DNA from: Neophaeotheca triangularis
Taxonomy: Eukaryota
Direction: 5' to 3'
Assembly (NCBI GenBank): GCA_054600435.1
Contig: BAAIJX010000009.1
Location: 372,001 to 436,000 of the forward strand
DNA: 64,000 nucleotides
The notes beneath the pieces are model-generated. The model was not told the origin of the DNA and searched no databases. It was given only the letters and a program-made list of their open reading frames with translations. Position 1 is the first letter of the stretch; the number at the start of each line of letters is the position of its first letter. Positions 3,693-64,000 of this stretch are shown here, one piece after another. The position numbers and the translations under genes were made by a program.

Positions 3693-5394
3693 AGAGTACG
3701 AGGGTCGCGGCCTGGGTGACATGGCTAGGTATATGCTTAGCACGAGCTTGATGTCGAGTCTTCGATAGTGCACGACGAGCGCCGATTTAATCAGGGAAAG
3801 TGGTGAGAGGAGCGAACGCGACGTAGCGATTCAGCAAATCAAAAGCTAAAGTGCTGGTTGAAGTCCTTTAGAGAGAAGCTTCCTTTCCCAGTCCCCAGAC
3901 GTCTCCCAACAGCACCCCGTGCGCCCACCAGCATTCGACACCAACCTCAGCCGCGACAGCCCTAGCAGTGGCGCCAGTGAGTGGAAGCGCGGAGTCACGG
4001 TGAGCAACGTATACCTACCCCTGACGGCGCGGCTCCCGCCGACATTAGATCCCAAACCTGGTGTTGCGCCGCAACAATGCACGCCCGCGAGCCTGCGAGT
4101 CGCCGGCCGCCGGGAAGAAACGGTCAGTGCGGCGAAAGGATCTCCGTGGCGGGTGTATGACGCGGTTGGGCTGTGCTGGTGTGGTGGAATTCGTGGCATA
4201 GGCGACTTTGGCGCCAGAGTCGACTATGAATGTAGGTTTGGAAGGATTCAGAGCCCGTCGAAGTGTTCATGGACCTGCTTTGAGACCGCTCGCAAGGCCG
4301 CACATGCTGGCCAGAAGATACGGCCCAGAACGTGCTTCGTCCCAAATCCTCTTTCAACCGCTTGAATCATCTTGGACGACCGTGGCAATGTTCAGACATC
4401 GCAGTCGGTGTACTTTACTATCCAGAACAAGAGACACTGCGGAGCATGAACCAAGCAGCAAGGCTGCTAAGGAAGTGTAGCCAAATCATGCCTGCTGGGG
4501 CAAGGGAAGCCTTTCGGCGCGACGAAGCAGCCACAAAAGCTCGCGGTCGAAACCGATGAGCTATTCCCAGCGGGCCAAGGCGCTCCAGTGAAGCTATCGA
4601 TAATCGCGCTGGAGGTTGAATTCAAGGCCGTCAGATCTGGCTAGCATTTGCTCAAAAGTCATCACCGTTGTCGTGAGCGACCTCTGCTATGCTTGCATCT
4701 TCTTTCCAAGCCACGTCCTGGGCGGTCATGCACTGCGTTATACGGTCTGCTTGCAATGCACGGCTTTCGAAGGGCCTAGGATCGTGGATTCAGTCCTCAC
4801 GGCTTCTCGTGCACGGCAGACATTACTCACCGTCCCCGGCCACCACGCGCGAGAAATCGAGCATCGAAACTCGCGAGAAGCGGAAGCGCTTGGTTGCGAA
4901 ACTTTGGTATTCGGTGTTTGGTGAGGAAGTCTCATTACATAGTCATTAAGTAATTATCAAGGTGTCGTCCCTTGTGCGGCAGCAAAGCAAAAGCAAAAGT
5001 ACCGTAGTACTGCTCGCGAACAAACAAACGAATAAACAAAGCAAGCCAGCTCGCTCCCATTTCCTTCGCTGAGATTCCTGTGCTCTGCATGTTTAACAAT
5101 TAATGCAAGAGCAAAGCCTCTCGGTATCGCACTCAGCTATGGTCTGGCCTTTCTTCTTTTCATTCGTAAAAATCGATGGCGAAGCACTTGTTGTAGAACC
5201 AAACGCAGACCCCCGGGAATTGCTTGCACCGTAGACAATACCACTGCCACAAGCCGCGAAAGTCAGACGTCCAGAGGCTGATATTCGAAGGCCGCTCGTG
5301 GCGCGGGCGCGGTCTAGCGTGGTACGCTTCTTCCCAACCGTACAGATCCCCGCTATAAGGACTTGGTTTGTATATTTAGCAGGAATGTTTCCGT

Positions 5395-47400: not shown

Positions 47401-50400
47401 CCTCGAGCGCCCTTCTGCGGTCCTCTTTTCTCCTCTCCTCGGCTCTCCTTTTCTGGTCCCTGCCCTCTTGCTCGTCGGTGAGCCCGAAGCGCACGTTGCC
47501 GGGGCTACGCCTCTCGCGCTCGGCAGAGGCGCCAGCGAGAGCACTGGCAGTGGCAAGACCCGCGCCGCTAGCCAAGGCAGCTTCAGTCCATTTACTATCG
47601 TAGACGGGACTGGACTGGGTGCGTCGAGGCATGGGTCGGGAAGGGTCGCGTGAAGATGGGGAGGGTTGTACGAGATTTGAAGGTATTGGGGTGATGGGTT
47701 GGGGATGCTGGATGGGCGAGGGACCTGGACGTGCTATGATGGGTGGGTCTTCCACAAAGGAACCAGGCATAGGAGCTTGGCGCGAGCCTGTCTGGCTACC
47801 AGAGGCTTCTGAAAGAGGGCGTGGGTCGATGTGTTGCAGCGGTTGAGTCGGCTGGGCGGAGTTGGTCGAAAACACGCTTTCTGTGGGTGCATAATTTGCT
47901 TTTGGCGCAATCCTCTGAGGTGTAGGCTGCACCGGTGCCCCGTCGTAGCCAGAAGGCCCGGGGATGAAGTTGTCGCCTGGTCTTGGTGGATAAGCCGGTG
48001 CCGACTCGATCTTCCTCTGCTTTTTCTTGTCTTTCTTGCCGCCCCATCGCCAGCCCCAAGCGCTCAGCCCGCCGCCGCCGCCAGACGACTGCGAATTGAG
48101 GCTTTCCATACTTTGGCGGCCCTTTAGTTTTCTGTCATCACCACCAAATGCAAGCCCAGATCCCTCACTAGAGGCATCGTCCACGTCACTCGGTAGCTCG
48201 TCTTCCCATTCATCGTCGGAAGAATCTTGACGTGACACGCGTCGTCCTTGCTGACCGCGCATAGCCTGCCGACTGGGTCGTTTGGAGATACGACCATTCT
48301 TTTTGTGTTGAGCGGCCGCGAGCGCTGCAGCCGTGGCACCAATACCCGCCACAGTCGCGTTGAGACGATCATCAGAAGACTTACGGCCGGCCTTTTTCTG
48401 CGTCGGCAAGCTCGTCCGGCTGGCGTTCTTGCTGCTGCCTACAGTCGAGTCGAAAGCTAAGCCGGAGTCAGAAGAAGACGCTGAACCATTACCGAAATTG
48501 AAGAATCCACTCTTGCGCTCCTTGCGACGAGGGGCTTGCTGAAAGTTGCCTTGAGAGGAGGCGTAGTAGCCTCCAGGTACATTGCCGGAAAGAGCAGAGG
48601 AAGCATTGCCTCGAGCACCACTGTACCTCGTGCTCGGAGAAGCTCGTCGCTCAGCACGACGCTTAGCCTTGCGATCGGTAAAGCCGAAAATATCAGCTAG
48701 ACCGGGATTGTGGATGCTGCCGCTGCTGTCACTCGAGCTGCTGCTGGGACGATGCGGGCGGACAAAAGCACCTTGAGATTGCTCTTGACCTCTGTCACTC
48801 GTTGTCCCGGCCGAAAGCGCTCCGGCACCGAGCGCAGCGCCGCCGAATCTAGCGCCAAAACCATGTCGCTCTCGAGAAGAGCTCCGCTGGTACTTTCTGC
48901 TGTCCATGACCCCATCCCGCCTCGTCGAACCTGTGTACTCTCTTCCATCCGAACGGCGGACAGAACCATACTGGCCTCTGCTCCTCCTCTCCCTTGAGGA
49001 GCTGCGGCTCCTCCTGGCAGCAGAGCTAGCCCGATGGCCAGACTTGACACTGTAAGTATCGTCAAAGTCCTTGCGGTCATTGAACATAGCGTTCGCCGCT
49101 AGACCCGCACCTGCAGCCGCCAGACCCGCACCTGCGAGACCAGTCTTGCTAAACTTCTTGCTCCTACGCTCGTCGTCCGACGAAGAAGCCGAAGAGCCAT
49201 ACGCGTAGCGGCTGTTCTTGTCTACCCTGCGGCTTCCGTGACGGCGCAGACTGTCTCCGGAGGTTTGACGACGCAGGCGGTCGTTGCTACCACGGCGCTG
49301 TCCGTAGAGATGCCGACGTGGTCCTTGTGAAGGGGAGGAGTTGGGATCGAAGCAGTATTTGCAGACGCCGATGTATTCTGTGTACTCCTCCATCTTACGC
49401 ACGTCATCCGGTGAGGAAACGAGATTGAGGAGTCCGTCCCTCAGGCGGCTGATTGGGCCGCGGTGTTCGTGTTGGTGGTGGTCGGGCTGGTGCAATTGCG
49501 GCATGTTGCCATTTGCGTATGGTGGCCTCGAAGCATATTGTGAAGCGCTGCCGTATTGCGAGCCGGCGGCTGTGGTGGAGTAATGGCTGTTTTGGTATTG
49601 AGACGCGCCGCCGTACTGAGATCCACCGAATGTGGTTGGAAATTGACTGCCTTGGTACTGGGAAGGGCCCTGGTTCATTTGGTGCGCTGCTAGGCCCGCT
49701 GCCCCTGCTGCTGCTGCACCCGCTGCGTACATTGGCATGTTAGAGTGTTGTTCTTGGGAAGGGTACTTACTGGTATGTCGGCCAGAGATCTCTGGTGGTG
49801 GCGCGTAGTAACCTCCGTTGGATGCTGCGGCTGGTTCTGAATTGTGGCGCATCGGTCGAGGAGGCGCGTAGCTAGGCAGTGAAGCAGGTGGCGCAACTGA
49901 AGAGGCTGGCACCGTGGATGGTGGCATCGAAGAGACGGTGGATGGTGAATAGTATGATGCCGCTTCACCTGTCATGGGCACTGTTGGTGCACGCTGCGAT
50001 GATCGCTCTTCCTCCTTGGCAGAAGACTTCGACGCTGGACGCATCCATCCACGGCTCGTCTTGGTCTTAGGGTCACCATCTGAACATTTCTTGTCGGACT
50101 TCTTCTTCGATTTCCTGTCGTCCCTATCATCTCCAGCCGGCCCTGCTCTTCCCTCATAGAACTCCGCCGCAGCCCCGTTTCCAGTGTCTTGCGCGGGATT
50201 CGCTTCCACGCTCGCCGTAGTGAGGTGCGGTGTAGCATTGACAAGCATGTTGGGTGTACGCGATCTCACCCCTGGCTGACTCAGCACGCTCTGTCCTTGA
50301 TCTTTATAATAATCCGCGGCAGCACCGAATTTTTCCTCTCTCTTACTCGAGCCGCGATCGTCGCGCGGATCGGGGCCAAAGTCAGACCGCGTATAGGAAG

Positions 50401-51064: not shown

Positions 51065-51627
51065 CTTCAAATTGAGGTATAGAGATTGGCGTTGCTAGGG
51101 TAGTGTTGTGGGTGTTGACGCTTGTTTTGATAGATGGGTCACGCGAGGCGTTGGTTTGGGAAGAATTGCAATGCTAGCGATGGGCGAGTAGCTGAACGCG
51201 CCACCGAGAGATCAATATGTACACTCGGATAGTCTTTTCGTCGTCGTTTTGTCTCGTCTCGTACAGTGGTATAAAAGCCGCGTCCTATGTCTGATAGCTC
51301 AGGTCACTAGGAATAATAAACACGGCCTCGCAAATGGTGTATCGTATGTACAAGGATTGGGTGATCATGGACATGCAAAACATTTCTGCACACATGTACG
51401 ACAAGGAAGACAAACATTTCGCCCCTACAACAAGGTCGGTAAGAGGATGGTGAGGCGGGATCTTCACACCGCATACATGCCCGTACTAGCAGCAGCTGCT
51501 GTGTTGTTCATGCAGCTCGGTGGCTGGCTTTGCCGAGTGGCCGCCCGCAACGGTGGGCTGAACTGAAGAACCCCCGGCGGGTCCTTCCTAACGGCTACTG
51601 CCGCAGAGTCGGTCTGCTTCTGCTGTT

Positions 51628-51657
51628 GACCGTTGACCATGGCGTTCTTCGTCTCAA
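51628..51657 (+). repeat. Left TIR GACCGTTGACCATGGCGTTCTTCGTCTCAA
   Basis: The reverse complement of 62124-62153 is GACCGTTGACCATGCCGTCTTTCGTCTCAA: 3 mismatches, first 14 bp perfect. Confidence 0.92.
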
Positions 51658-51933
51658 AACAATGAACGTGGGGTTTTCAGCTTTGCATACTTCCGCTTTC
51701 ATTAACAACACTAGAACAACACACGATTTGTATGCGAACAGCGTACAACTAATGAGAAATGGAGTCACTGTCGCTGCATGCGGTACTCACGTTCGCTATG
51801 CGCTGCTTGCGGCCTAAGGCATTTTGTTGTTCGCTAACATACCTCTAGCCGCGCGTAATCCTCACAACTAAACCTCTAACAACAACCACATTGCGCGTTA
51901 TCTCGTGGTAGCGCGGTTTACCTACTACGCATT

Positions 51934-52860
51934 ATGGACTCTGCTATAAGTAAGCCTAAGGACACCTTATCTATCAATAAACCTCCGGTTAGCGAACCTA
52001 GAGCTAACGAAACTAGCATAGATTTAGCCGAAGAGTGAGTTCCTACGTACCCTTTCGGGTCAATCGTTCATGTTCGCACCTAATTCGTTATAGTGAGCCC
52101 GTTATCTTACCGAGCGACCCTCCTCGACCCTAGCTCCCCGACAACCTTAAGTAGCTTAAGCAACCTACTACGACCGACATTAACGACTTTTGGCTTAAGA
52201 GCGACAAGGACTAGGATAAATTAGTAGTGAAAGCTACTAAAGAGTAGAAAGAGAAGATGAAGAACAAGCTAGTAACGGCGTATCTAAAGAAGTTAGACGC
52301 CGCGCGCCGTATAATAGAGACGGGGGAGGGTGTCGTCGCTATCGTACCTTATAAGACATACGTACGCGTAGCTATAAACGGTCCGGCGAAAAAGGCCCTA
52401 ACGTGTACGGTTTTTAAGGACACTAGTAAGGCCTATGCATACTATCGGCGTATAGGAAAGTCTAGCTATAATGCCCGTAAGACGGCGAAGCCCCTTACGA
52501 ACGGCGAGCGATTAGACAAGATAGAGGTATAGATTAAGGAGCTAGGTGAAGAGCTCCGTCTTCGGTTAGATAAGCTAGAGGAGTCTATTAGAGAGCGTCT
52601 AGAGGAGCAGAAAGACGACATTGCTACTAATACTACCGACGTTAACCGAGTAATAACCGATATCTCTACTATCGAGAAGGGCCTCGACGAGAAAGCCGAC
52701 TAGTCTAACCTCGCTAGTCTAGCTAACACGCTTAGTAGCTTTAGGGGTAAGGTAGAGGCTACGTTTAGAAGGATTAAGTAGTAGTTAGAGAAGTTTAGGG
52801 TAAAGGTTACGGACAAGGACGGGGAGCTTAGAGAGATTTATTAGGCGTAAAGGAGCGATT
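51934..52860 (+). pseudogene. RIP-degraded gene with a putative Cys-cluster and C-terminal coiled coil; intron 52035-52093; 3' end approximate
   Basis: ATG 51934 and a GTGAGT..CTAAT..TAG intron restore frame with track ORF 52257-52532. A heptad-like E/L/K-rich tail follows. Confidence 0.6.
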
Positions 52861-53280
52861 ACACTTGCGAATACCTAGCGAACAGTCTTTTGAAATCAAT
52901 TTAGAGTCTCTCGAATACTATAGTCTAGCCGAATTTCATTAGTTTTACCCATAATTCAAGCATTATACCCTTCAAATAAAATCTTTAACCCTTACTCTCG
53001 ATATAACCTAGGTAACACAAGGAGCATTAGCATTACATAATTCCCTAATACCGACACTGTAACTACTAAAATAACTCCCGTGTCGGCGACTATTGCAGAT
53101 TTTAATATGATTTCTACGCAAACTCTAACCCTCGACCTTAATATAGACTAGCTCCCGCTATATCTAGGCTTCTAATTAGCTCGCTAAGCCGCCGAAGTCT
53201 AACCGACCGACCTCTTCCCTTGCATCTATAATAACAACACGGTACTCTAGCTATAACACCTCTCGTCCTATTACTAAACA

Positions 53281-53425
53281 ACCTATCCCGGCATTAATGA
53301 ACCTATCCCGGCATTAAATAACCTATCCCGGCATTAATTAACCCATCCCGGCATCAAACAAACCATCCCGGCATTAAACAAACTATCCCGGCATCAATCA
53401 ACTCATCCCGGCATTAATCAACCTA
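53281..53425. repeat. 20-bp tandem repeat x7 (ACCTATCCCGGCATTAAWYA-like)
   Basis: Directly visible periodicity. Confidence 0.95.
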
Positions 53426-53616
53426 CTACGGTAACCGCTATCCTACCACGGTACCTATTAACCTATCCTAGCCTAAAGAAACCGTTAAAGCACTTAGGCT
53501 AGCCTAAGAGACAGTCGGGCTATAGCATATTAAGAGTTAGGCTAGCCGGAGAGCATCGGGCTACGTGCTAAATAGTTTTAGGCTAGATAAATTAGCAGTC
53601 AGACTAAAAAGTTCCG

Positions 53617-53689
53617 GGCTAGGTCAGGATAGGCTAGGTTAGGATAGGCTAGGTCAGGATAGGCTAGGTCAGGATAGGCTAGGTTAGGA
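53617..53689. repeat. 15-bp tandem repeat x~5 (GGCTAGGTYAGGATA)
   Basis: Directly visible. Confidence 0.95.
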
Positions 53690-53747
53690 AGGACATATTC
53701 CGCCCTGTTATATCCTTTAGAAAACCAGGGTTTTTGCTCTAGCTAGC

Positions 53748-53869
53748 GTATTAGTAGTCGGGCTAGGAGCATTAGTAGTCGGGCTAGGAGCATTAGCAGT
53801 CGGGCTAGGAGTATTAGTAGTCGGGCTAGGAGCATTAGTAGTCGGGCTAGGAGCATCGGCAATCGGGCT
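53748..53869. repeat. 21-bp tandem repeat x~6 (GCATTAGTAGTCGGGCTAGGA)
   Basis: Directly visible. Confidence 0.95.
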
Positions 53870-53961
53870 CTATAGGGGAAGGGCATTAGTAGAAAAACTA
53901 GAGGCTCGATAGAAGCTCGATAGTCCTCGAGACGCCTTCGCGACTAGCTACCTAAGCTAAT

Positions 53962-54140
53962 ATTTAACAACATAGCTGCCTTAGAGGCAATTCCCATGCT
54001 ATAGCCCGCCTCGGAGGCAATTCCTACGCTATAGTCTCTCGTCTCGTACGCTTTACCTCCCGAGAGACTATGGCGTAGGAATTTCCTCTAAGGCGGGCTA
54101 TAGCATGGGAATTTCCTCTAAGGCAGCTATGTTGTTAAAT
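53962..54140. repeat. Long inverted repeat with 80-bp arms (53962-54041 / 54061-54140) and a 19-nt spacer
   Basis: Arms differ at ~5 of 80 positions. Each arm contains an internal 30-bp direct repeat. Confidence 0.93.
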
Positions 54141-54258
54141 CTTAGCTAGGGCAAGAGGCTATAGCAAATAGGGTATATACCCGCGCTTATTAACGAACTT
54201 AGCCTTTAAACTAAAGAGCTTTACGGAGGTCGATCCGGCGTACGACGAGCGAGATCAC

Positions 54259-54356
54259 AAGGAGCGAGACAAGCTTAAAGAGACCTACATCTCCGCCTCT
54301 ATTCATAAGGAGCGAGACAAGCTTAAAGAGACCTAATCTCCGCCTCTATTCATAAG
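54259..54356. repeat. ~49-bp direct tandem duplication
   Basis: aaggagcgagacaagcttaaagagaccta(c)atctccgcctctattcat occurs twice, with a 1-nt deletion in the second copy. Confidence 0.9.
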
Positions 54357-54826
54357 CCTTATAGGCATATGCCTTCCTATTATATGCTCGAACGCTACCG
54401 TGGCAAGGGGCAGTTATAAAAACCTACGTCCCTTCATTATAATACCTCTTCTTTATAATAACCTTCCGCCTTCTACTTCTCCGACCACCTTCTACTTCTC
54501 CGACTACCTTCTACTTCTCCGACTACCTTCTACTTCTTCGAGACTAGTACCCGCTACTACTAGCTCATTATGGCTAGTAATAAAGGCTCTAGTAATAGCA
54601 CTAATAATAAGAGCTCCGGTTAAACCCCTAGCGGCAATAGAGGCATTACCGACGAGAACCGCGCCGACATAAGGGACTTCGTTACTACTACTTAGCGTTA
54701 CGTGGATTAGTACGATCCTAACGACCCTACGTCTAATGACGCTCAATTTACTGCTGCCGCTTAGCGGTTTATCGACCGCGGCGACCTAACGGATCTATTA
54801 GCCTCGCAGAATTAGAGCACAACCTT

Positions 54827-54984
54827 ATCTACGCCCGTAAACATATCTACGTCCGTAAACACCTCTACGCCGGCAAACACCTCTACGCCGGCAAACACCT
54901 CTACGTCCGCGAACACCTCTACGTCCGCGAACACCTCTACGTCCGCGAATACCTCTACGTCCGCGAACACCTCTACGTCCGCGG
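54827..54984. repeat. 18-bp tandem repeat x~9 (ACACCTCTACGTCCGCGA; encodes NTSTSA-like units)
   Basis: Directly visible. Confidence 0.93.
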
Positions 54985-55116
54985 ACTCCTCTCCGCCTAC
55001 GGGCCCCCTAACTAGTAAGCGTTAAGAGCGTCGCTACCCGGTAACGTCTACATTAACATCAATACTAACTCTAATACTAACACTAATACTATCTAGTGGA
55101 TTAGGCACTAGCGGAG

Positions 55117-55278
55117 GGCACTAGGCACTAGGCACTAGGCACTAGGCACTAGGCACTAGGCATTAGGCATTAGGGCAATAGGGCAATAGGGCAATGGGGC
55201 AATAGGGCAATAGGGCATTAGGCATTAGGGCAATAGGGTAATGGGGCAATAGGGCAATGGGGCAATAGGGCAATGGGG
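55117..55278. repeat. Compound microsatellite, (GGCACTA)n grading into (GGGCAATR)n
   Basis: Directly visible. Confidence 0.93.
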
Positions 55279-55589
55279 CGGTTATTTCATCTTGGTTTTT
55301 TAGCTACAAAATGAGCTCGTAAGAGCATAGTTATAACGAAGGCTTTAGGCCAGTTTCACCTCCTTGTGAAGTTATTAGGTTACTAAAATTCAGGTTAGGC
55401 CGGGTTATGTTAGGTTAGGTTATGCTAGGTTAGGATAAGTCGGGCTAGGGCGAGAGCAGTTAGGCTATTCGAGTCCGGGAGTTAGGCTAGCTAGATCCTT
55501 AGACAAGTTAGGTGAAAAACGTTAGTCAGGCTAGGCTTAATGCAGTTAGGCTAGCGAAAGTGAAGTTAAAGGATCCTAAACCCTCCTTT

Positions 55590-55662
55590 ATTCACGACAG
55601 CTTACCTACATTCACGACACCTTACCTATATTCACGACACCTTACCCGCATTCACGACACCT
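55590..55662. repeat. 20-bp tandem repeat x~4 (ATTCACGACACCTTACCTAY)
   Basis: Directly visible. Confidence 0.9.
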
Positions 55663-56510
55663 TCGACTTGTCTACTACTACTAAAGGCTCCCTTGATCTT
55701 TATAGTAACCTCCTACTAACATCCTAACCTTTTACCCTCTACCTTTAACTACGCTATAGCGAACGATATAGGACTCGATAAGGACGGCTAACGTATCTCG
55801 AGGTCGCCATTAAGTACATCATCCTAGTCGTTAACACTAGCGCCTCCTACGCTATTAGTAGCGCCTAGGGCAAGAGCTAAGATAAGATCTTAAGCCTAAG
55901 CTTAGGCGTTAGCTAGTAGGCGGCTCCCTACTACCTCGCCTAAACGCTCTCTGTCGCCTTTAGCATTTCGACTAGTTCCTATTTCTTAACCACGTCGGGT
56001 TACTTATGGCTTAGGGCGCGCGCCTCTATCTCCCTACCCTTATTATGGCGCGGCGCGGCATTATACCTCTCTCGCTCTACTACCGGGAACAGTTCGTCCT
56101 CGCGCGGTAATAGGACTAGGCTTAATAACGCCTACTTCGAGACCTCTAACTATAAGGCCTAACCCGGCTATAGAGCCTCCGCGGCGTAGACATCCTTTAA
56201 CTATAACTAGCAGCGCCCTACGCTTAACGCTCTATGCGAGACAAAGAGACCCGCGCGACGTGCCTTCTTCGCCTACCCCCGACGGTAACGACGGCTTCGG
56301 ACACCTCTTTACGCCTTCCCGTTAACTTGCGTAAGAATTAGGTGCTACTACTATTAGAGATTCCCCTACGCCTTAGTTACCGCTTGCTAGCTATAGTCGA
56401 CAAAGCTCCTATAGCCCCCGACTTTAGTACGGCCCTCTTAGTTATTAGAACTAATACCTAGAGTCCCGTTATAGCTCGTAACATGGCTCGCAACATGGCT
56501 CCTAACATGG
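55650..56510 (-). pseudogene. RIP-degraded hypothetical gene remnant; boundaries approximate
   Basis: A minus frame reads as charged protein (e.g. LPREDELFPVVERERYNAAPRHNKGREIEARA) with RIP-type stops. Confidence 0.35.
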
Positions 56511-56609
56511 CTCCTAATAACCCGCCCGGTAACCCTCCTAGACTCTATAACCTTCTATCGAGCATAATGATTATGTGCCTATAGATATTGACGACGATAG
56601 GCCATCTGT

Positions 56610-57680
56610 TAATCGTTCTTTGTCGGGTGAGGGTTTAACGTTCTAATCTCGAGAGCCGTCTCGTTAGTCGTCTCGATAGCCGTCTCGAGAGCCGTCTCGT
56701 TAGTCGTCTCGAGAGCCGTCTCGTTAGCCGTCTCGTTAGCCGTCTCGTCAACCGTCCGGGTCTTTACAGCGTGCTCTCTTCTTACGGCCCTCTGCATCTA
56801 TACTTGGCCTTTATTAGAGCTCGCTGCCTAGCTAGCGTTAGCTACTATTAGCTCTAGAATGTTAAGCCTAGGCTACATTCGAAGAGCGAGAGTATCTAGC
56901 TCGGGCCTAGGCCGAAGCAAGTATAGCTAGCTATACTTAAGGCTAGATTTAAGAGAACGATCTATACGAACAATAGCGACAGCCTAGGTACCCGAGCTAG
57001 ACTTTAGTCTAGAGTAGAGAGACTCGTGCCTAGCGAGAGAAGCTCCCCTCTAGATCTCGAGAAGGCTAATCTCTCTATACTACTAAGCTCCGTAAGCCGA
57101 ACGACAAGAGCTAGCTCGTATAGGACGTAGGGTCTAAGACTTAGAAGAGGAAGTAGAGCTATCGCGGGAGAATGACGGATACCGACGCTAGCCTTAAGTA
57201 TTACGGAGATTAACGCTACGACCGTTATCGGTCGATAGGAGCCCGTTGCTTTACCTATAAAGAGATAGAGCGCGCTTTCTACTACTAGAACCGGGGCACT
57301 AGTTACGGTTATAGTGAATGTCTAAATAGGAATACCGTATGCTCCTTTTAAAAACGAGCTAATAAGCGAAAGGAGCTTATAGAGTAGGAACGTTAACAAT
57401 AGGCGCGACAGACTAGCACCGCCGCTAGCGCTAGCTCTAATTATTAACGATAATCTTAGTAATAGTAGTTTAGCCCTCCTCCTTCTTAGTAATAGTAGTA
57501 GCAGGCTACTACTAGTACTCGACGTTCGAACTAGCGTAGTTTTGCCGATATAACGCCTACGGAGCGGCAAGTAGAGCTTAAGGAGTACGAATAGCGTGAT
57601 GCTCGAACGGTAAGAATAAGAGAGTTAGTTAGGAATAGGACCGAGCCACACTAGTTTACGCCCTACATTATTATATGGGT
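56610..57680 (-). pseudogene. RIP-degraded low-complexity S/R/P-rich gene remnant ending in ETAN/ETAL repeats; boundaries approximate
   Basis: ORF-track fragments 57322-57570 and 56609-56797 appear to be parts of one degraded coding region. Confidence 0.4.
56648..56748. repeat. 12-bp tandem repeat x~8 (GCCGTCTCGTTA/GAGA)
   Basis: Directly visible; encodes ETAN/ETAL on the minus strand. Confidence 0.9.
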
Positions 57681-58199
57681 AGAGCGTTTTAGTTAGACGG
57701 AGTCGCGTATATAGGTAGAGTATACTATAGGTAATATTTAGGAGTTCGCGGATAGGGGGTAGGGTCGTAGGGTCCGCGGTAGTTAAGCGTAGGGGGGAAG
57801 AGCATAAGGGGAGAAAGCATAGCGGCGGTTAAGGAGCAAGGCGTAGGTTTATAGATAGCACATCTACGTTCTAGACGAAATCATCCTACCTCGACCCGTT
57901 ATACTACCTCTTAACCCTATAAGACCTAGCTTAACTACTTCTATAGCTAGCCTAACCGCTCCCTTACCCTTAGCCTAACTACTCTTTAGCTAGCCTGATT
58001 ACAATTTACTTATAGCCTAACTGCCTCTCGGGCTAGCCAAACTGCTTTACACGCTTAGCCTAGCTACGTGTAGGCTAGGAGGGGTAAGAATAGGCTGTAC
58101 TAGGTTAGGGCGTAGTAGGTCGGGCTTAATAGGGAATGTGTAGTCTAAGATAGTACAGTTTCTAAAGCAAACAATAGGAAATTACACCGCGTACGCCTA

Positions 58200-59922
58200 A
58201 GAAACAGACGTAACTAGACAAAGTATGTCCCTATAAAAGAAAGCCCCGACGGGACGCGCCCCTTACTACTAGCCTGCCTATCCTTTACCGACCGCGACGT
58301 CGGTTACGGAGCTCCCTCGTACCGCCCTAGTTAACGCTCCCCCTCTTACGCTTGCTACTAGCGCTAGACTTTTACTTAGATAATAGCGGGGGCTCGGACG
58401 AGGTAGGTGGCTCGGAGAGGCCTAACGACCCCTCGGCCTATAAGATAAGGTCTAACGACTCTCCGGCCTAGGAGAGAAGGCCTAACGATTAGCCGACGCT
58501 ACTCGGCGAGGGTTCGCTACCCGTTACCGGTAGTAATACCTCGCGAGAGTGCTAAGCTGTATTAGTAACGGCTTCGGCGTTACTAGCGGTAGGGCTAGAA
58601 GCTCTAAGGCTAAAATTAGGTCCTAAAATAGGAAGCTCCTCGGGACTATCGCATCCCCCGAGTAGTAGATCGGGAGATGCTCGCCGCGCTACTCGCCGCG
58701 CGCGGGGTATTAGTTAACCGGTAAGATTAACAAACTCGGGGGTCTTGTCTAGATCGATTTGCATAGTCGACTATGACCGCTAAAACTCCGTTTTCACGAC
58801 AGTATTGTTGCTGTCCGCCTCGACGCTCGGCTAAACCGGAGTAACTAGCTGCTTCTACTGCCTCTTCCCCCCCCTTAGAGTCCTTAGTACTCTTAGTGCT
58901 TTTAGTGTCTTAGGGGTACGGGGTTTCGGCAGACTCGGCGGTAACTCCTCCTCTACCTCCTCCGGTTCTAGCTCCGGCTCCGGCTCTACCTCCGTCTAGA
59001 TTACGATCTTAGCGGTAAACTCCCTACGGTTCCTCCTATGCTAGAGGAAGGGTATAAGGATTTGCTCGAGGTCCTTAGAGTAGGTAACGCTCCGACCGTA
59101 AATACTAGGCATATGAGTTTTGCTGTCGAAATCGGTAATTAATAGGGTGTTAACGTGATCAGGTTTTAGCGAGGCAAACTAGTAGTCTATGTTGTCGGTC
59201 TGTTTTAATAGGAACTCTAAGAAGTATATGTTTTCGTAGTAAAAGGCCTTCTCTTTAAAACCGTAGGTGATTCTATTCGCCTTTCTAGGCGCGCCATAAA
59301 CCTACTACTAATTAGTCCTATTAGATCCTTTTAATACCGTCTATATGAAAATCTTAATATTGGCGGAGTACGTACGCTCTAGAGGGGGTTCGGACGAAGA
59401 CTATACTAGATCAGTAGAGCTTCTTAGCGACCTAGAGGAACGGTAACTAAAGCCTACGGCGCCGGCGTTACTCTTCTTATAACCCTAGAGACTATACGTA
59501 CGTAGGCTAGTAGCTAATCGGTTAGTGTTAGCCGTTCCGCTAATGGCGCCCCTAGGACCTTCGATAAAGGTCTAGTAGCCCGATCCTTAAGAGGCCGTCC
59601 TTTAGTCGCTCTACGTTCGCGGGGGCTATACCGGGCTAACTAGCTCTACGGTAGGTTAGCGCATCTTAGCGATAGGCGCCGGAGCGACTTATTACCTCTA
59701 GGGCTCGGCGTTAACGGCGTGCTCTCCGCTAGTTCTCGTATCTATTCGGTCCGGAGGTGCTACGGAATAACGGATCATTAGTCGCTTATAAAGAGGGATT
59801 AGATTCGAGAGCCTATAGAACCTACACTTACTATAGGCCTTAGTAAGTTCATAGCGAATTTGCCTACGTACGCAATAGGACCCGATTTGCTAAAATTCGG
59901 TAGGTCCCTCTTGTTCCGACAT
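58200..59922 (-). pseudogene. RIP-degraded second ORF of the element (unknown function, EPEPE-rich segment); 3' end approximate
   Basis: ATG at 59922 (MSEQEGPTEF*QIGSYC...). The long frame is interrupted mostly by TAG/TAA and is co-oriented with the transposase. EVEPEPE(L)EPEEVEEELPP occurs near 58950-59000. Confidence 0.55.
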
Positions 59923-60169
59923 AGTCCTGAAATTTGCCTCGAACGAGCGGCGATTAGGCGACGAATAAGGCGTTATGTTAGGGGAGAATATAGGTAAACG
60001 GGGGGTAAAGGAAGAGTAAGACAAGATACGATACGAAAGATGAATAAGAAATTTAGAGCGAAATGAAATACCCTGTGGCTAACTACGGGGTTACGAACGG
60101 CACTACGAACTAGGTTCGATTAGACTTTTAGAGCTTGCCTTAATATAGTCAATTTCCGCGGGGTTTCTA

Positions 60170-61998
60170 CTCATTATTAATAGGTATACCCTGCGCTATA
60201 CGCGTCCTCGTAGTTAATCGGTTAGCTAACTATACTAGCGTCTACAAATACTTGCTACGCAGCCCCTATTGCCGGCTAATTTCGAGCGCCTAGTAGGCGC
60301 TCGAGCTCTATAAGTATTAGCTTATAGCCGGCTAAATCATAAAGGCGGACCTAGTCACGAAGCGCTCGATATACTAGGGTGTGCACTTTCTGTCCGCTAG
60401 GATTAACGTCGTCACTTGTAAAACGCTTAAAACCGAGGTCCTAGAGCGTCTATTAACACTAATTAAACGTAGGTTAGGGAAGGTAAGCATTAATGTCTGC
60501 TTACGTTATTAGTTCAGCCCTCTTAGCCGTTCGTAGCATGTTCGCGAGGCTACTTACGAAAATCCGTAAGGCTCTTAGCGAGGGGAGTAAGTAACCCCTC
60601 CGGAACCGCGATCCTATAATCTCTTCTACCGTAGATTATAGGGTAGTCATATAGCATGTTTAGTACCCCTACTACTGCGTTTAGTCGATCGGGCTGCCTT
60701 CTAATTCTATGGTTGTTCTAAAGGTCTATATACTAGAAATATACGGCACGGATAATAGGTATATATACCGCTAAGAATACAATGCGGTGCCGCATATTAC
60801 CTAGTTAATACTGTCTAGTAGCGACGAGGATCTCGAAGTAGCTCTTCTATTACTGTCCGATACTTAAGAAGGACTTCCCCTACTAGACCTCGATACGCTG
60901 ATTTTGCTTGCTAGTACTATACCGGAAATAGTCCTTAAAAGTCAGCTCCTCTTAGTTACCTAGCCCGTTAGCTTAGTCGCCGCCTATTCGCAGTTACGTT
61001 GCTAAATAGAACTAGGCATCTGCTAGCATAATTGTTTTACCGCCGCGGTCTATAGTAATAACTTGGGGCATAACACCCCCTTTACCGACGCTTACGAGGT
61101 ATTATGCGCCGACGGACACCGCTATCTAAGCCGTAATGCTAACGTAAAGCCAGATTACCTTTCGAGAAAAGGCGTCGATATAACTATAGATCTATATACC
61201 GTAGCCCTCGAATTTGCACATAGCGTCGATCGACTATACGTAATTAGGCCCCGGTATGTTAACTGTACGGGTATGACGGACCGTCTAAAGACGCCTCTTA
61301 AAACTAGCAGGATTAATTTCATGCGTAACCCTCTAGAGGCGGTTTCTAGTAGCAACGTGTTAGCGATTTGTCTATAAACGCGGAGCGAACAGCGCCCTTT
61401 TCGCTATAACTAGACAAAACGAATAGGAGAAGACGCTTGTCCTATTAGACGTAGTAAAGGGAGTAGCGAATAACTAGGGGAACAGGGTGCGAATAGCCTA
61501 CCTTCCTACTACGTTATACTTCGACCTAAGGGTAACGTAGAGCGTTTGTATGCTAAGGTCTTTAATCTTGCCGCCTTCGAGCTCTACTATGTACTTGTCT
61601 CTTATCTACTACTCTATAGCCTAGCCTAGCTCTAAGTCGTCTACGTACTGTTTACGTAGGCCTATAGACAGTCTTAGATTGATTATTTGCCGTTCGCTCA
61701 AGTCGCTATAGCCGTCCGCCTAGAGCACTATAGCGATTTCGGCGTCTATTAGCCTTATGTCGCAGACTAGCATGTGTACACGGTACCGTATTACCTCCGT
61801 CTCGATATCAAGGAGTCTTAGCCGGCGACGACTAGTAGTCTGCTATTCGCCGAGACGCCTACGTAGTATACCTTCCGAAACGAGAAGGCTATAGGTGGTT
61901 AGTAAATCGGCGCGCAGCTCTAAGTGTTGTTTTCCGCTGGCAATGGCTTGTTCGATGTGGGCGCGAAACGGCTCTAGGTCTACCCGTTAGCGAGGCAT
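60170..61998 (-). pseudogene. RIP-inactivated DDE transposase (Clr5-like N-terminus + integrase core); intron 60557-60497; 3' end approximate
   Basis: Segments in one frame from ATG 61998: MPR*RVDLEPFRAHI..LRRRLGE*, PGPNYV*SIDAMCKFEGYGI*IY..IDAFSRKVIWLYV, DRGG, Y.TSKQNQRIEV**, L*NNHRIRRQ and MLYDYP. Stops are TAG/TAA at expected Trp/Gln positions. Confidence 0.88.
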
Positions 61999-62123
61999 GA
62001 ATGGGAAGTATGTATGTGCTTTGCATAACAAAATCAGTAATATCGTAGCATGGTTGCGAACAAGGTGCGAACGAGATTGCAATGTTTACAAAACAAAAGT
62101 GCGGAAGCGCGGGGGACTTTGAA

Positions 62124-62153
62124 TTGAGACGAAAGACGGCATGGTCAACGGTC
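62124..62153 (-). repeat. Right TIR
   Basis: ttgagacgaaagacggcatggtcaacggtc, followed by the TSD ctgtt. Confidence 0.92.
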
Positions 62154-62500
62154 CTGTTTCAGCTGATATGCAGGGGTACCTGGGTACTCGGTATGGTCAA
62201 GTCACGTGCGAATTGTCTGTCGTAGACTGCAAGAGAAGGAAGAAACACTCAATGAGCCGGCTGCAAATTAACATTTCCTATACTGATCCGGACCAGTGTG
62301 AATTTTAAATCGCCTTTGGGACCTTCGCCCGTCTATCCCGACCGAAATGATAAGTAATCGCTAGCCCATAATGCTCGCCCAATGTGACATTCCCTACGCC
62401 GCACGCCATCGCTTTCCCTCAAGAACACATTCCGGTTCCTATTTCTGGAGCTCTCAAATCGCTATTGCCCATAGACAACAGTCTGCGGTTTCCAAGCTTA

Positions 62501-63710
62501 CTAAACTGGGTTTCCAAACTGCGCCCTCAGGCCAATAATCTGGTCCCTCGCGCCAGCGTCCATGGCGTAGACTTGCTCCCTCGTGAGCGCCATGATGGCA
62601 CGTAAAGCTTCTTCCTGGTTTGGCTGGCCTTGTGGGGCCTGTTGCGGCTGCGGCGGGGGTTGGTACGCTTGTTGCTGTACCGGGGGGGTCGGGGCGTAGC
62701 CCATTTGTGGAGGCCCCTGTTGAGGAGGGTAACCATATTGGCCTTGCGGAGGGAACTGTGGAGGTGGTTGCTGCATTGCTTGCGGCGGCGGTGGCTGTTG
62801 GTACATCTGCTGTGCTGGAGGCTGGGATGGCGTAGGGGCGGGAGCCGTCTGTTGCACAAGGGAGTTGATAACGCTTGTGTCGACGACGCCGAGGAGCAGC
62901 AGCGCCTGGAAGACGGCGTAGCTGAGTTGAGGTGCAGATGTGAGGAGGGCCGTTGCGCGCTGCGGCTCGGTTTGGACGAGGTTCTTCATCTGGCTGATGA
63001 TGTCGAGAAGTTGGGGTGGAGGGATGGAGGAAAGCGTGCGACTGATTGCGTCGGGGGCTGTGAGGTTGGGATCGAGGTCGACTCCAGATGGGAGTGGTGG
63101 AAGTGCTGATGAGTCTCCTGGTACCGCGTTCGTGCCATTCGCATCCGCTTGGGGTCCGTTCAGATTGAAATGTGCTGGTGGTGGTGCCCTGCCACTGCCT
63201 CCATCTTGTTGCCCTCCAGCTCCGCCTCTACCACCGCCGTTGTCGTTGCTGTAGTCAACGCGCAGTGTCCTTCCCATAACCTCGTGTTCGTTCAGGTTGC
63301 GAACAGCGCTCGCGGCCTCGTCAACGTTGGTATACTCCAAAAATCCGAAACCCTTAGGCTTCCCACTCTCCTTATCGTAGACAAGGCGGAAGTTCACCAC
63401 CGAGCCAACGCGCCCGAAGATCTCGCATATTTGCTCCTCGCTGACTCCTGCGCGCACCTCAAGTTAGCAAGATTCTCCACCCTATGCAAATGTCAATCGC
63501 AACTGCCCCCATTTATCCCCTGAATGGATGCTTATTTCGATTTCTCATCCAGTTTCTCGGGCTTTGTGATGTGTTGACTGTCTCTCCCGTCCATGCTTCT
63601 CCTCGTCTGAGGCAGTAGGAACGGTAACAATGAGGTTTTTACACGTTATACGTACCGTATGGGATGTTGCCAATGAAAACCACCCTTCCACCCTTCTCGC
63701 GCGCAGCCAT
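62501..63710 (-). CDS. RNA15: Cleavage/polyadenylation factor Rna15/CstF-64; intron 63655-63448
   Basis: MAAREKGGRVVFIGNIPY|GVSEEQ; RRM FRLVYDKESGKPKGFGFLEY..AVRNLN..GRTLRVD; hinge PQLSYAVFQALL; Q/P-rich linker and C-terminal LT.EQ..M....R.QI..LR. Confidence 0.93.
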
Positions 63711-64000
63711 AGTTGCCTCACTATTTCACGGGCCTTACTGATCCGGTGTGTTCATTCGCAGTCTGGTGTCGAAGATTGAAGGAGGTAGGACGCCAGAAAC
63801 GTATCGGTCGTGGGTATTTTGGCAGAATGTCGATGGCAGAGTCAAGACTTGTTAGTGTGTTCGTAGTCGCGATTTCGCTTGCGAAAGTAAGATTTGGTCA
63901 GAGGTTGATGTTGTTGTGTTTGGTGTTGAAGGTCAAGTCGTGCACGCCGTACTCGTGAGAGTTGAAGCTTCAACGCATTGTTGCCAAGACTGCGTTCGAC

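Follow-up and report, generated by a model that had tools for sequence, protein, structure and literature searches.

What is the broken gene near the right-hand end of a 64,000-nt stretch of DNA from the fungus Neophaeotheca triangularis (positions 372,001 to 436,000 of contig BAAIJX010000009.1; hereafter, the window), and what was it part of? An earlier note on this DNA, made from the letters alone, had proposed a DDE transposase that was inactivated by repeat-induced point mutation (RIP) and that came from a eukaryotic DNA transposon, not from a retroelement or a bacterial insertion sequence. We reached the same answer, because of the terminal inverted repeats (TIRs), the target-site duplication, the empty site, and the spliceosomal introns that are described below. 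With a probability of roughly 90%, we are looking at the transposase gene from a class II (TIR) DNA transposon that was inserted between two fungal genes and later destroyed by RIP. The coordinates of its features are collected in Table 1.

The broken gene and its catalytic core

We read the gene from the ATG at 61998, without splicing and with an X at each stop (P0001; 666 positions, 46 stops). In all searches with the window's frame, the stops were read as X. Residues 247-436 of P0001 match rva_4 in Pfam ("Integrase core domain"; PF24764) with 35.4 bits, compared with a cut-off of 26 (E = 1.1e-8). (The classical rve model gives 12.4 bits only.) Judging by this match, the protein is a member of rva_4, which is the family that the published GingerRoot transposases belong to. 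Searching the solved structures by sequence gave no match for P0001 and marginal matches only for a profile of the family (E = 0.018-0.4).

When we used the broken frame as the query in a word-seeded search, five proteins had E ≤ 1e-3. The best of these was P0002, with 530 amino acids (E = 9.9e-40). BLASTP against P0002 gave 129 identities over 462 positions (E = 1e-46), and the similarity runs from a shared N-terminus (MPRP...) to beyond the core. A search with P0002 found 27 proteins at E ≤ 1e-10, among them hypothetical proteins from Cladorrhinum, Clonostachys rosea, Penicillium lagena, and Usnea florida. According to the precomputed Pfam annotation, these 27 have rva_4, in many cases together with Clr5, rve, or both. 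The genomes of Venturia inaequalis and Aspergillus spectabilis contain intact relatives as well. A profile of five relatives, run against 1.84 billion representatives, retrieved 11,482 proteins with E ≤ 1e-3; the number was 5,218 at 1e-10 and 1,093 at 1e-30. We aligned 50 relatives, all of which match rva_4; 30 match rve and five match HTH_21, the IS3-type helix-turn-helix. Among NCBIfam's bacterial models, 32 of the 50 match IS3 (best E = 6.7e-13) and 20 match IS481.

The codons that the earlier note had picked for the catalytic D, D, and E are all in one frame and where it placed them, with 52 residues between the second aspartate and the glutamate. We aligned 174 retrieved proteins to a profile of this family and counted the residues among the sequences that cover each column. 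In P0002 numbering, D208 is conserved in 166 of 170 relatives, D267 in 166 of 169, and E308 in 168 of 170, so the acidic residues are conserved in homologues, as was expected. The two aspartates are separated by 58 residues in the window and in 142 of 158 family members. The spacing from the second aspartate to the glutamate had been described as extended, but it is not a distinguishing trait: values in the family run from 32 to 92 with a median of 40, and at least 52 residues are present in 20 of 162 members. The window has 12 extra residues in a variable loop before strand β5, where P0016, P0018, and P0025 have longer insertions, so its spacing is ordinary variation within the family. The suggestion of a Clr5-like N-terminus fared better for the relatives, 16 of 50 of which match Clr5 at E ≤ 0.01 (best E = 8e-9), than for the window, which has no Clr5 match at E ≤ 1.

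For the fold, we used an AlphaFold2 model of the intact relative P0002, built from a 50-sequence alignment (mean pLDDT 85.6, pTM 0.79). The predicted topology is β1-β2-β3-α-β4-α-β5-α. D208 lies in β1 (204-210), D267 comes just after β4 (263-266), and E308 is near the start of a long helix that begins at 305 and follows β5 (296-298), so all three are at their canonical places. The model's N-terminus has two three-helix units (residues 8-51 and 65-111), and more helices follow the core. The top Foldseek matches in the PDB were TnsB, prototype foamy virus (PFV) integrase, and IstA (E ~5e-5). In pairwise superpositions, residues 192-492 of the model match TnsB (9bw1_M, 498-796) with Z = 13.7 and a root-mean-square deviation (rmsd) of 3.8 Å over 201 aligned residues; residues 194-395 match the PFV integrase core (114-300) with Z = 13.0 and rmsd 2.9 Å over 156; and residues 195-395 match the HIV-1 integrase core (53-208) with Z = 12.7 and rmsd 3.3 Å over 149. 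Overall, Z was 12.6-13.7 for these three cores. The catalytic core of P0002 is thus modeled as an RNase H/integrase fold, as the earlier note had anticipated.

Retroviral integrases, TnsB of Tn7 and CAST, and IstA of IS21 thus resemble the P0002 model in the RNase H-fold core (Z = 12-13.7 over 144-201 residues) and in having their acidic residues at the same positions in the predicted secondary structure. However, the identity is only 9-16%, and the N- and C-terminal domains differ: in the model these are helical and include neither an HHCC finger nor an SH3-like C-terminal domain. Given the retroviral cores among the best structural matches, together with the weak match to rve, is the gene a fragment of a long terminal repeat retrotransposon or of a retrovirus-like integrase? 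We think that this is exceedingly improbable. In a six-frame Pfam scan of 51400-62300, there was no reverse transcriptase, protease, RNase H domain, DUF3716, or second transposase; besides rva_4, we saw only sub-threshold matches to DUF4795 and Collagen. The terminal repeats are inverted, not direct, and the protein is colinear with stand-alone proteins of 470-530 amino acids; the related elements are TIR elements of 6-8 kb. Also, no histidine or cysteine upstream of D208 is invariant, or even 90% conserved, in the 50-sequence alignment.

The ends of the element and an empty site

The TIRs are the sole long inverted repeat that brackets the RIP-affected block, and 30 of their 35 nt pair. The transposase's ATG is 121 nt downstream of the inner edge of the right TIR. 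(The same gap is 97 nt in L001, one of the related loci that are described below.) An exact 11-mer from the TIR occurs in the window at the two termini only. With up to two mismatches, it has 9 matches in the window compared with 15 expected by chance, which implies that there are no extra binding sites. The sole direct repeat of at least 5 nt that flanks the inverted ends is CTGTT, immediately outside both TIRs.

Sequencing reads show what this site looks like without the element. X1 and X2 are public sequencing runs with the same organism label and from different samples; X1 is the probable source of the window. X2 contains 0.49 of the words of 61000-63500. Across 50000-64000, X2 covers both flanks at a depth of about 115-120 and leaves the element uncovered. 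A contig from X2 stops matching at 51627 and runs on as TCAGCTGATA, which is window 62159-62168. Conversely, the X2 contigs that begin at 62154 have GTCGGTCTGCTTCTG before them, which is window 51608-51622. The unoccupied allele in X2 is ...TTCTG-CTGTT-TCAGC..., with CTGTT once. Because there is a single CTGTT in the empty site, the element must be exactly 51628-62153, with termini 5'-GACCG..CGGTC-3' and a 5-bp duplication. The adjoining bases on either side do not permit the duplication to extend beyond 5 bp. At this insertion, the 5-bp target duplication and the GACCG..CGGTC termini are unambiguous.

Might X2 have had the element and lost it, by precise excision or deletion, so that the element is old at this locus? 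DNA transposons can excise, and the flanks in X1 and X2 differ by several substitutions per 100-300 nt, so the two lineages are not very close. Still, the junction in X2 has exactly one CTGTT and no footprint, which is how an unoccupied target looks. (When a DDE element excises, it usually leaves the duplication or a scar.) We consider a loss in X2 to be unlikely and prefer the reading that the site was never occupied there. This bears on the earlier description of the transposon as long-resident, which suits the family and does not suit the insertion in the window, as it is absent from a second sample with the same organism label.

RIP requires more than one copy, and we found others in the contigs of the sequencing runs, which is how we judged copy number. 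One contig from X2 (record 15) matches the element from exactly 51628 onwards, after 30 unrelated letters (140 nt with 16 differences). One contig from X1 (record 8) matches 62057-62151 with 14 differences and then continues into a different flank. Several shorter pieces, with 85-95% likeness, match elsewhere in the element. As other copies start or end at the same termini, the family is multi-copy. Run X8 gave only one 34-nt piece of low identity in this region.

We also noticed a contig in X1 that joins 60897 to 61500 and skips 602 nt, although the shorter side has only 25 letters. This may come from a further copy whose transposase gene has lost an internal part, or it may be a chance join of RIP-degraded copies.

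Related elements

Several relatives of the transposase lie in elements with TIRs. The element at L001, which is metagenomic, measures 6.0 kb. Its 42-nt TIRs are perfect and 5,915 nt apart, and from one of them it is 97 nt inward to the transposase's ATG. In L009, the TIRs are 194 nt long, 98% identical, and 7.5 kb apart. In L004, two inverted arms of 72 nt (262-333 and 610-681; 94%), with 276 nt between them, precede a transposase gene closely, as if one copy's right end were beside another copy's left end. In an alignment of the window's TIR with the TIR cores of three metagenomic relatives (L001, L002, and L004), 11 columns are invariant over seven ends. The conserved pattern is ACSG..G..CA....T..CG..CAAAAC. 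This alignment is strong evidence that the TIRs of the window and of these three loci are homologous transposon ends, and the conserved core is probably where the transposase binds.

These ends bear on another explanation: that the gene was a host gene, such as a domesticated Clr5/integrase-like regulator, that suffered RIP after a segmental duplication. The named relatives are all annotated as hypothetical or as "integrase core domain-containing," and many of the clusters were seen on a single contig, which would fit a host gene. But a host gene would not explain why the TIRs are homologous to those of relatives, why other copies end at the same termini, or why the catalytic triad is conserved across the family, and insertion is indicated by the empty allele and by a duplication of exactly 5 bp. 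A host gene is very unlikely, and we regard the gene as a transposon's.

Three of the related loci have a second open reading frame (ORF) in common, downstream of the transposase and on the same strand (L001, 4414-5688; L006, 1463-2668; L008, 2063-3402). The versions in L001 and L006 are 31% identical over 236 amino acids (E = 3e-24), and the shared ORF has a CxxC-like motif near the N-terminus and a tail that is rich in lysine and glutamate. It may encode a helper protein of this branch of transposons. Among 11 second ORFs of relatives that we scanned, including the one shared by L001, L006, and L008, 10 have no Pfam family. The exception is in L002 (6712-7314, minus strand, just downstream of the transposase), which matches Tetraspanin with 33.2 bits (cut-off 32.1).

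L008 also has arrays of a ~21-nt unit (TCTACCGCCATCGTCCTC...) at 1-210 and 3909-4186, near its two ends and in inverted orientation; the contig ends inside these subterminal repeats. The right-hand array contains four copies of L001's terminal 9-mer, GACGGCGGT. The repeats in L008 may be iterated binding sites for the transposase. Clusters of short repeats are also found in L001, L008, and L009.

RIP and the interior of the element

In 1-kb windows, the block at 52-62 kb has a TA/AT ratio of 1.67-3.52 and a (CA+TG)/(AC+GT) ratio of 0.23-0.68. Across the rest of the window, these are 0.35-1.33 and at least 1.0. For the element as a whole, TA/AT is 2.09, (CA+TG)/(AC+GT) is 0.44, and the GC content is 0.47, compared with 0.71, 1.24, and 0.56 in the left flank and 0.71, 1.18, and 0.55 in the right flank. 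(The customary thresholds for RIP are about 0.89 for TpA/ApT and 1.03 for (CpA+TpG)/(ApC+GpT).) The stop codons tell the same story. Of the 34 stops in the spliced model, 22 are TAG, 12 are TAA, and none are TGA, as the mutation of CpA/TpG to TpA predicts. From its composition and its stops, the element is a RIP-affected sequence, and this copy is dead: no transposase can be made from it. RIP-degraded transposons are commonplace in ascomycetes.

To look for other genes in the element, we compared every ORF of at least 90 codons from 11 of 16 related loci to it with tblastn, and the only matches were to the transposase, except for one of 29 residues with E = 0.007. A profile from three sequences of the relatives' second ORF gave just a low-complexity match in the window (E = 0.08). 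What we did find is repeats, namely a palindrome and at least seven minisatellite arrays (Table 1), such as 18-nt units of TCTACG.CCG..AACACC at 54810-55013.

Is the 10.5 kb a composite, that is, an original element of about 6-8 kb that grew by minisatellite expansion and/or nested insertions, with its second gene lost or unrecognizable? This would modify our explanation of the locus, not exclude it. The sizes of L001 (6.0 kb) and L009 (7.9 kb between TIRs), the seven or more tandem arrays and the palindrome with 87-nt arms, and the lack of a match in the window for the relatives' second ORF would all be consistent with growth. On the other hand, RIP is continuous from 51.85 to 61.95 kb; the six frames contain neither a second transposase nor a reverse transcriptase, nor any other domain typical of mobile elements; and L001 and L009 have internal clusters of short repeats too. 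We consider a composite to be a realistic possibility, at somewhat less than even odds. Either way, we read the region as a single RIP-degraded transposon with the ends given above.

Exons, introns, and stop codons of the pseudogene

The spliced model has 536 codons, including two terminal TAA codons. Over its whole length it can be aligned to 15 intact relatives, which are fungal proteins of 470-530 amino acids. tblastn with five relatives found only one copy of the transposase in the 64-kb window. The true stop of exon 3 is uncertain, since RIP can make TAA out of CAA.

The earlier note had reported one intron of 61 nt (GTAAGT..CTAAT..CAG), and this intron is real. Removing it shifts the frame by +1, and homology to the relatives resumes only then (DINAYLPxPTFNxC in the window versus DADEYLPADTYNW in P0004). 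(An alternative AAG acceptor would make it 58 nt.) In L008, a metagenomic relative, an intron of 107 nt shares this position and phase (P0002 residue ~417, phase 1). The note missed a second, 156-nt intron, further upstream. P0001 has an in-frame block of about 50 codons without a counterpart in relatives, and this intron had the highest summed alignment score of all GT..AG pairs (367, versus 316 unspliced). Again, a relative has an intron at the same position and phase: L012's is 50 nt, at P0002 residue ~167 in phase 2. By this comparison, both introns are real and their positions are shared with relatives. Three RNA runs contained 0.05-0.06 of the sampled words.

Additional introns are at residue ~192 (L008) and ~324 (L009 and L012). 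The P0002 clade (L001 and L002) is intronless, with 1590 nt for 530 codons. The presence of introns thus varies within the transposase family; outside the P0002 clade, there are one or two per locus, the window's included.

The stops were said to fall where tryptophan or glutamine is expected, which is correct for some of them. Six TAG stops (codons 52, 203, 320, 321, 332, and 375) are in columns with tryptophan in 11-15 of the 15 relatives, and the TAG at codon 441 is in a column with tryptophan in 7 of 15. At codons 130, 247, and 447, glutamine is the commonest residue of the column. The other stops are in variable columns. The claim that the ancestral protein is largely reconstructable was optimistic, as most of the stops, and many missense changes as well, are in variable columns.

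Comparison to known transposons

Among described elements, which does this one resemble? (The comparisons below draw on parts of the papers cited.) Kojima and Bao (2023) united GingerRoot with Repbase's IS3EU with 99% bootstrap (PMC10045372). IS3EU elements "usually" have a 6-bp duplication, and complete families "always" have TA..TA termini (PMC10045372). For GingerRoot, the duplication is 6 bp in 72 of 77 intact elements (7 bp in five and 8 bp in one), and 72 of 77 elements have TA..TA termini (PMC6839031). In the parts that we cite, both papers describe these transposases as having no HHCC motif (PMC10045372, PMC6839031).

The window's element resembles IS3EU and GingerRoot in several ways: it has TIRs and a single integrase/IS3-type DDE transposase; there is no HHCC upstream of the core; and the first catalytic aspartate is about 200 residues from the N-terminus. 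The sequence motifs are also alike. By eye, the transposases in the GingerRoot supplement have DGYDKL..FGFxIHGCIDGYSR..RADNGTEN..NQRIEAWW, as in the window's family (PMC6839031, in part). The GingerRoot sequences from Acropora have FGFCIHGCIDGYSR between DGYDKL and RADNGTEN, and their motifs are, again by eye, near-identical to those of the relative P0006; the motifs common to them and the window's family are W.xDGxDKL, IDxxSR, R.DxGxE, and NQRIExWW (PMC6839031, in part).

Two features differ from the published descriptions. The window's element has a 5-bp duplication instead of 6 bp, and its termini are GA..TC (GACCG..CGGTC), not TA..TA. The GA..TC termini are not a product of RIP acting on TA, because RIP (C to T, G to A) cannot turn T into G.

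We also compared the element to other eukaryotic transposons. The IS3EU elements of rusts end in TAYGG..CCRTA and carry an alpha-kinase gene (PMC12730594, in part). In L002 and L009, TACGG is found at the ends or no more than two bases from them, which resembles the rust termini, but the second ORF shared by the window's relatives is another one, without a Pfam match. Styx/REP9, from Zymoseptoria (Dothideomycetes), is 7.9 kb long and has 43-bp TIRs; its duplication is 6 bp, and it carries four genes (PMC8232023). Two of these are DUF3716 genes, there are RIP-degraded copies in sister species, and its authors place it nearest to IS3EU (PMC8232023, PMC10853768). Like Styx/REP9, the window's element is a large TIR element in Dothideomycetes with an integrase-like transposase at one end and with RIP-degraded copies. 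Compared by the published description, in part, it differs in its 5-bp duplication and in having no DUF3716 that we could detect (RIP may mask genes). Ginger1 and Ginger2/TDD are also integrase-like DDE DNA transposons of eukaryotes. However, Ginger elements end in TG..CA, and Ginger1 keeps Gypsy-type YPYY, HHCC, and GPY motifs (PMC6839031, in part), which are not conserved in the window's family; this sets Ginger1 apart by description, not by alignment.

Among bacterial elements, the best NCBIfam matches of the relatives are to IS3 and IS481, and HTH_21 is of the IS3 type. The window's gene differs from these in its spliceosomal introns, its fungal host, and its mutation by RIP, and the termini are not TG..CA. 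Bacterial IS3 has a frameshifted orfAB; by contrast, the window's transposase is one ORF.

By analogy, we suggest that the element worked like an IS3EU/GingerRoot/Styx transposon. We do not assert formal membership in IS3EU, because two descriptive features differ in the one insertion and because the comparison with GingerRoot was of motifs and by eye. In the literature, no paper among the matches listed names PF24764 (they deal with unrelated subjects such as starch viscosity), and our search found no paper linking Clr5, integrase, and transposon in fungi. In the available part of one preprint (bioRxiv 10.1101/2021.09.26.461848), we found no IS3EU content.

A bolder idea is that the ascomycete elements with a Clr5 helix-turn-helix and rva_4 are a distinct and undescribed branch of IS3EU/GingerRoot, at the rank of superfamily or deep family. 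We hold this tentatively and think it is rather doubtful. Its hallmarks may include 5-bp duplications, GAC(C/G)G termini, the conserved TIR core as a binding site, the second protein with CxxC and a Lys/Glu-rich tail, and the gain and loss of introns in the transposase gene.

How the element may have moved and died

We propose that a three-exon gene gave rise to a protein of about 530 amino acids, with two N-terminal helix-turn-helix units (the first being Clr5-like), a DDE core with the RNase H fold, and a helical C-terminal region. The helix-turn-helix units would bind the conserved core of the TIRs, and the D-D-E site would cut the element's ends and join them to target DNA with a 5-bp stagger. 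IS3 elements move by copy-out/paste-in. This element may have moved in that way, or else by cut-and-paste, as is proposed for Styx (PMC10853768, in part). Then, while at least two copies were present, RIP changed CpA/TpG to TpA and left 32 in-frame TAG or TAA stops, along with many missense changes.

Some observations weigh against this explanation. First, the fold was predicted for a relative, P0002, and not for the window's mutated sequence; the window's introns are known from sequence comparison alone; and transposition in this fungal branch is inferred from sequence and predicted structure. Second, the target duplication is known from just the one insertion. At L001, the flanks match for only 3 nt (ATA) at the edge of the TIR (there is one candidate 4-nt duplication 9 nt farther out), and L009 has no flank match. 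Third, the outer ~200 bp at each end (51628-51850 and 61950-62153) has nearly no RIP signal. Fourth, we could recognize no gene in 51663-60100, some 8.4 kb of the element; the second ORF that is common to L001, L006, and L008 is undetectable, which RIP could account for by hiding it; and the 10.5 kb may include nested or expanded DNA.

Features of the element and its neighbors

Table 1. Features of the transposon in the window
Feature	Position	Strand	Basis
Whole transposon, 10,526 bp	51628-62153	transposase read on minus strand	boundaries from empty-site contigs of X2; RIP indices
Left target-site duplication copy, CTGTT	51623-51627		flank repeat; empty site in X2
Right target-site duplication copy, CTGTT	62154-62158		flank repeat; empty site in X2
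Left TIR, 35 nt, begins GACCGTTGACC	51628-51662	+	86% complementary to 62119-62153
Right TIR, 35 nt, transposase-proximal	62119-62153	-	pairs with left TIR
Internal minisatellite arrays, at least 7 (units of 20, 15, 21, 19, 18, 8, and 12 nt)	53235-56768		repeat detection
Palindrome, 87-nt arms, 93%	53955-54041 / 54061-54147		
Transposase pseudogene, three exons, ~534 codons, 32 internal stops	60172-61998	-	colinear with 15 intact fungal relatives
Exon 1 (MPRxRVDLEP...): N-terminal helix-turn-helix region	61502-61998	-	aligns with N-termini of P0002, P0004, P0012
Intron 1, 156 nt, GTAGGC..CTAAC..TAG, phase 2	61346-61501	-	best GT..AG pair; intron of L012
Exon 2: entire DDE catalytic core	60558-61345	-	alignment; Pfam rva_4 match at ~60691-61260
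First catalytic Asp codon (xSID)	61225-61227	-	aligns with P0002 D208; strand β1
Second catalytic Asp codon (IDRG)	61048-61050	-	aligns with P0002 D267; just after strand β4
Catalytic Glu codon (NQRIE)	60889-60891	-	aligns with P0002 E308; start of helix 305-331
Intron 2, 61 nt, GTAAGT..CTAAT..CAG, phase 1	60497-60557	-	frame change; intron of L008
Exon 3: helical C-terminal region, ends TAA TAA TGA	60172-60496	-	aligns with relatives' C-termini

The right-hand neighbor of the element (62501-63457, minus strand) encodes a CSTF2-type RNA-binding protein that is 100% identical to a hypothetical protein from Neophaeotheca triangularis, a dothideomycete. The insertion site is in a spacer of about 0.9 kb between the 3' end of this gene and the start of a 7,206-codon ORF, and the element lies 557 bp upstream of the first listed start codon of that ORF.

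The 7,206-codon ORF itself is a single ORF at 29450-51070 on the minus strand. Its first 500 residues are of low complexity and rich in serine, arginine, proline, and glycine, and none of the three pieces that we scanned has a Pfam family at E ≤ 1e-5. The plus strand has an AT skew of about -0.36 over 33-40 kb.

What the locus means

The 11-kb AT-shifted block beside two genes turns out to be one dead transposon with exactly known ends. As a RIP-degraded transposon it is ordinary, its kind is known although it has been little studied, and no function is left in this copy. What goes beyond the routine is the pair of an insertion and an empty site, with a 5-bp duplication and non-TA termini, and the intron positions that are common to relatives.

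The IS3EU/GingerRoot group is poorly characterized, and the window gives a rare exact pair of insertion and empty site for a fungal member. It shows that the published rules (6-bp duplications and TA..TA ends) do not hold throughout the rva_4 family, which has over 11,000 sequence clusters. If the ascomycete elements are a distinct branch, then intact metagenomic copies such as L001, with its perfect 42-nt TIRs, would be currently active elements. The intact relatives that have TIRs, a transposase, and the shared second ORF are candidates for a first transposition assay.

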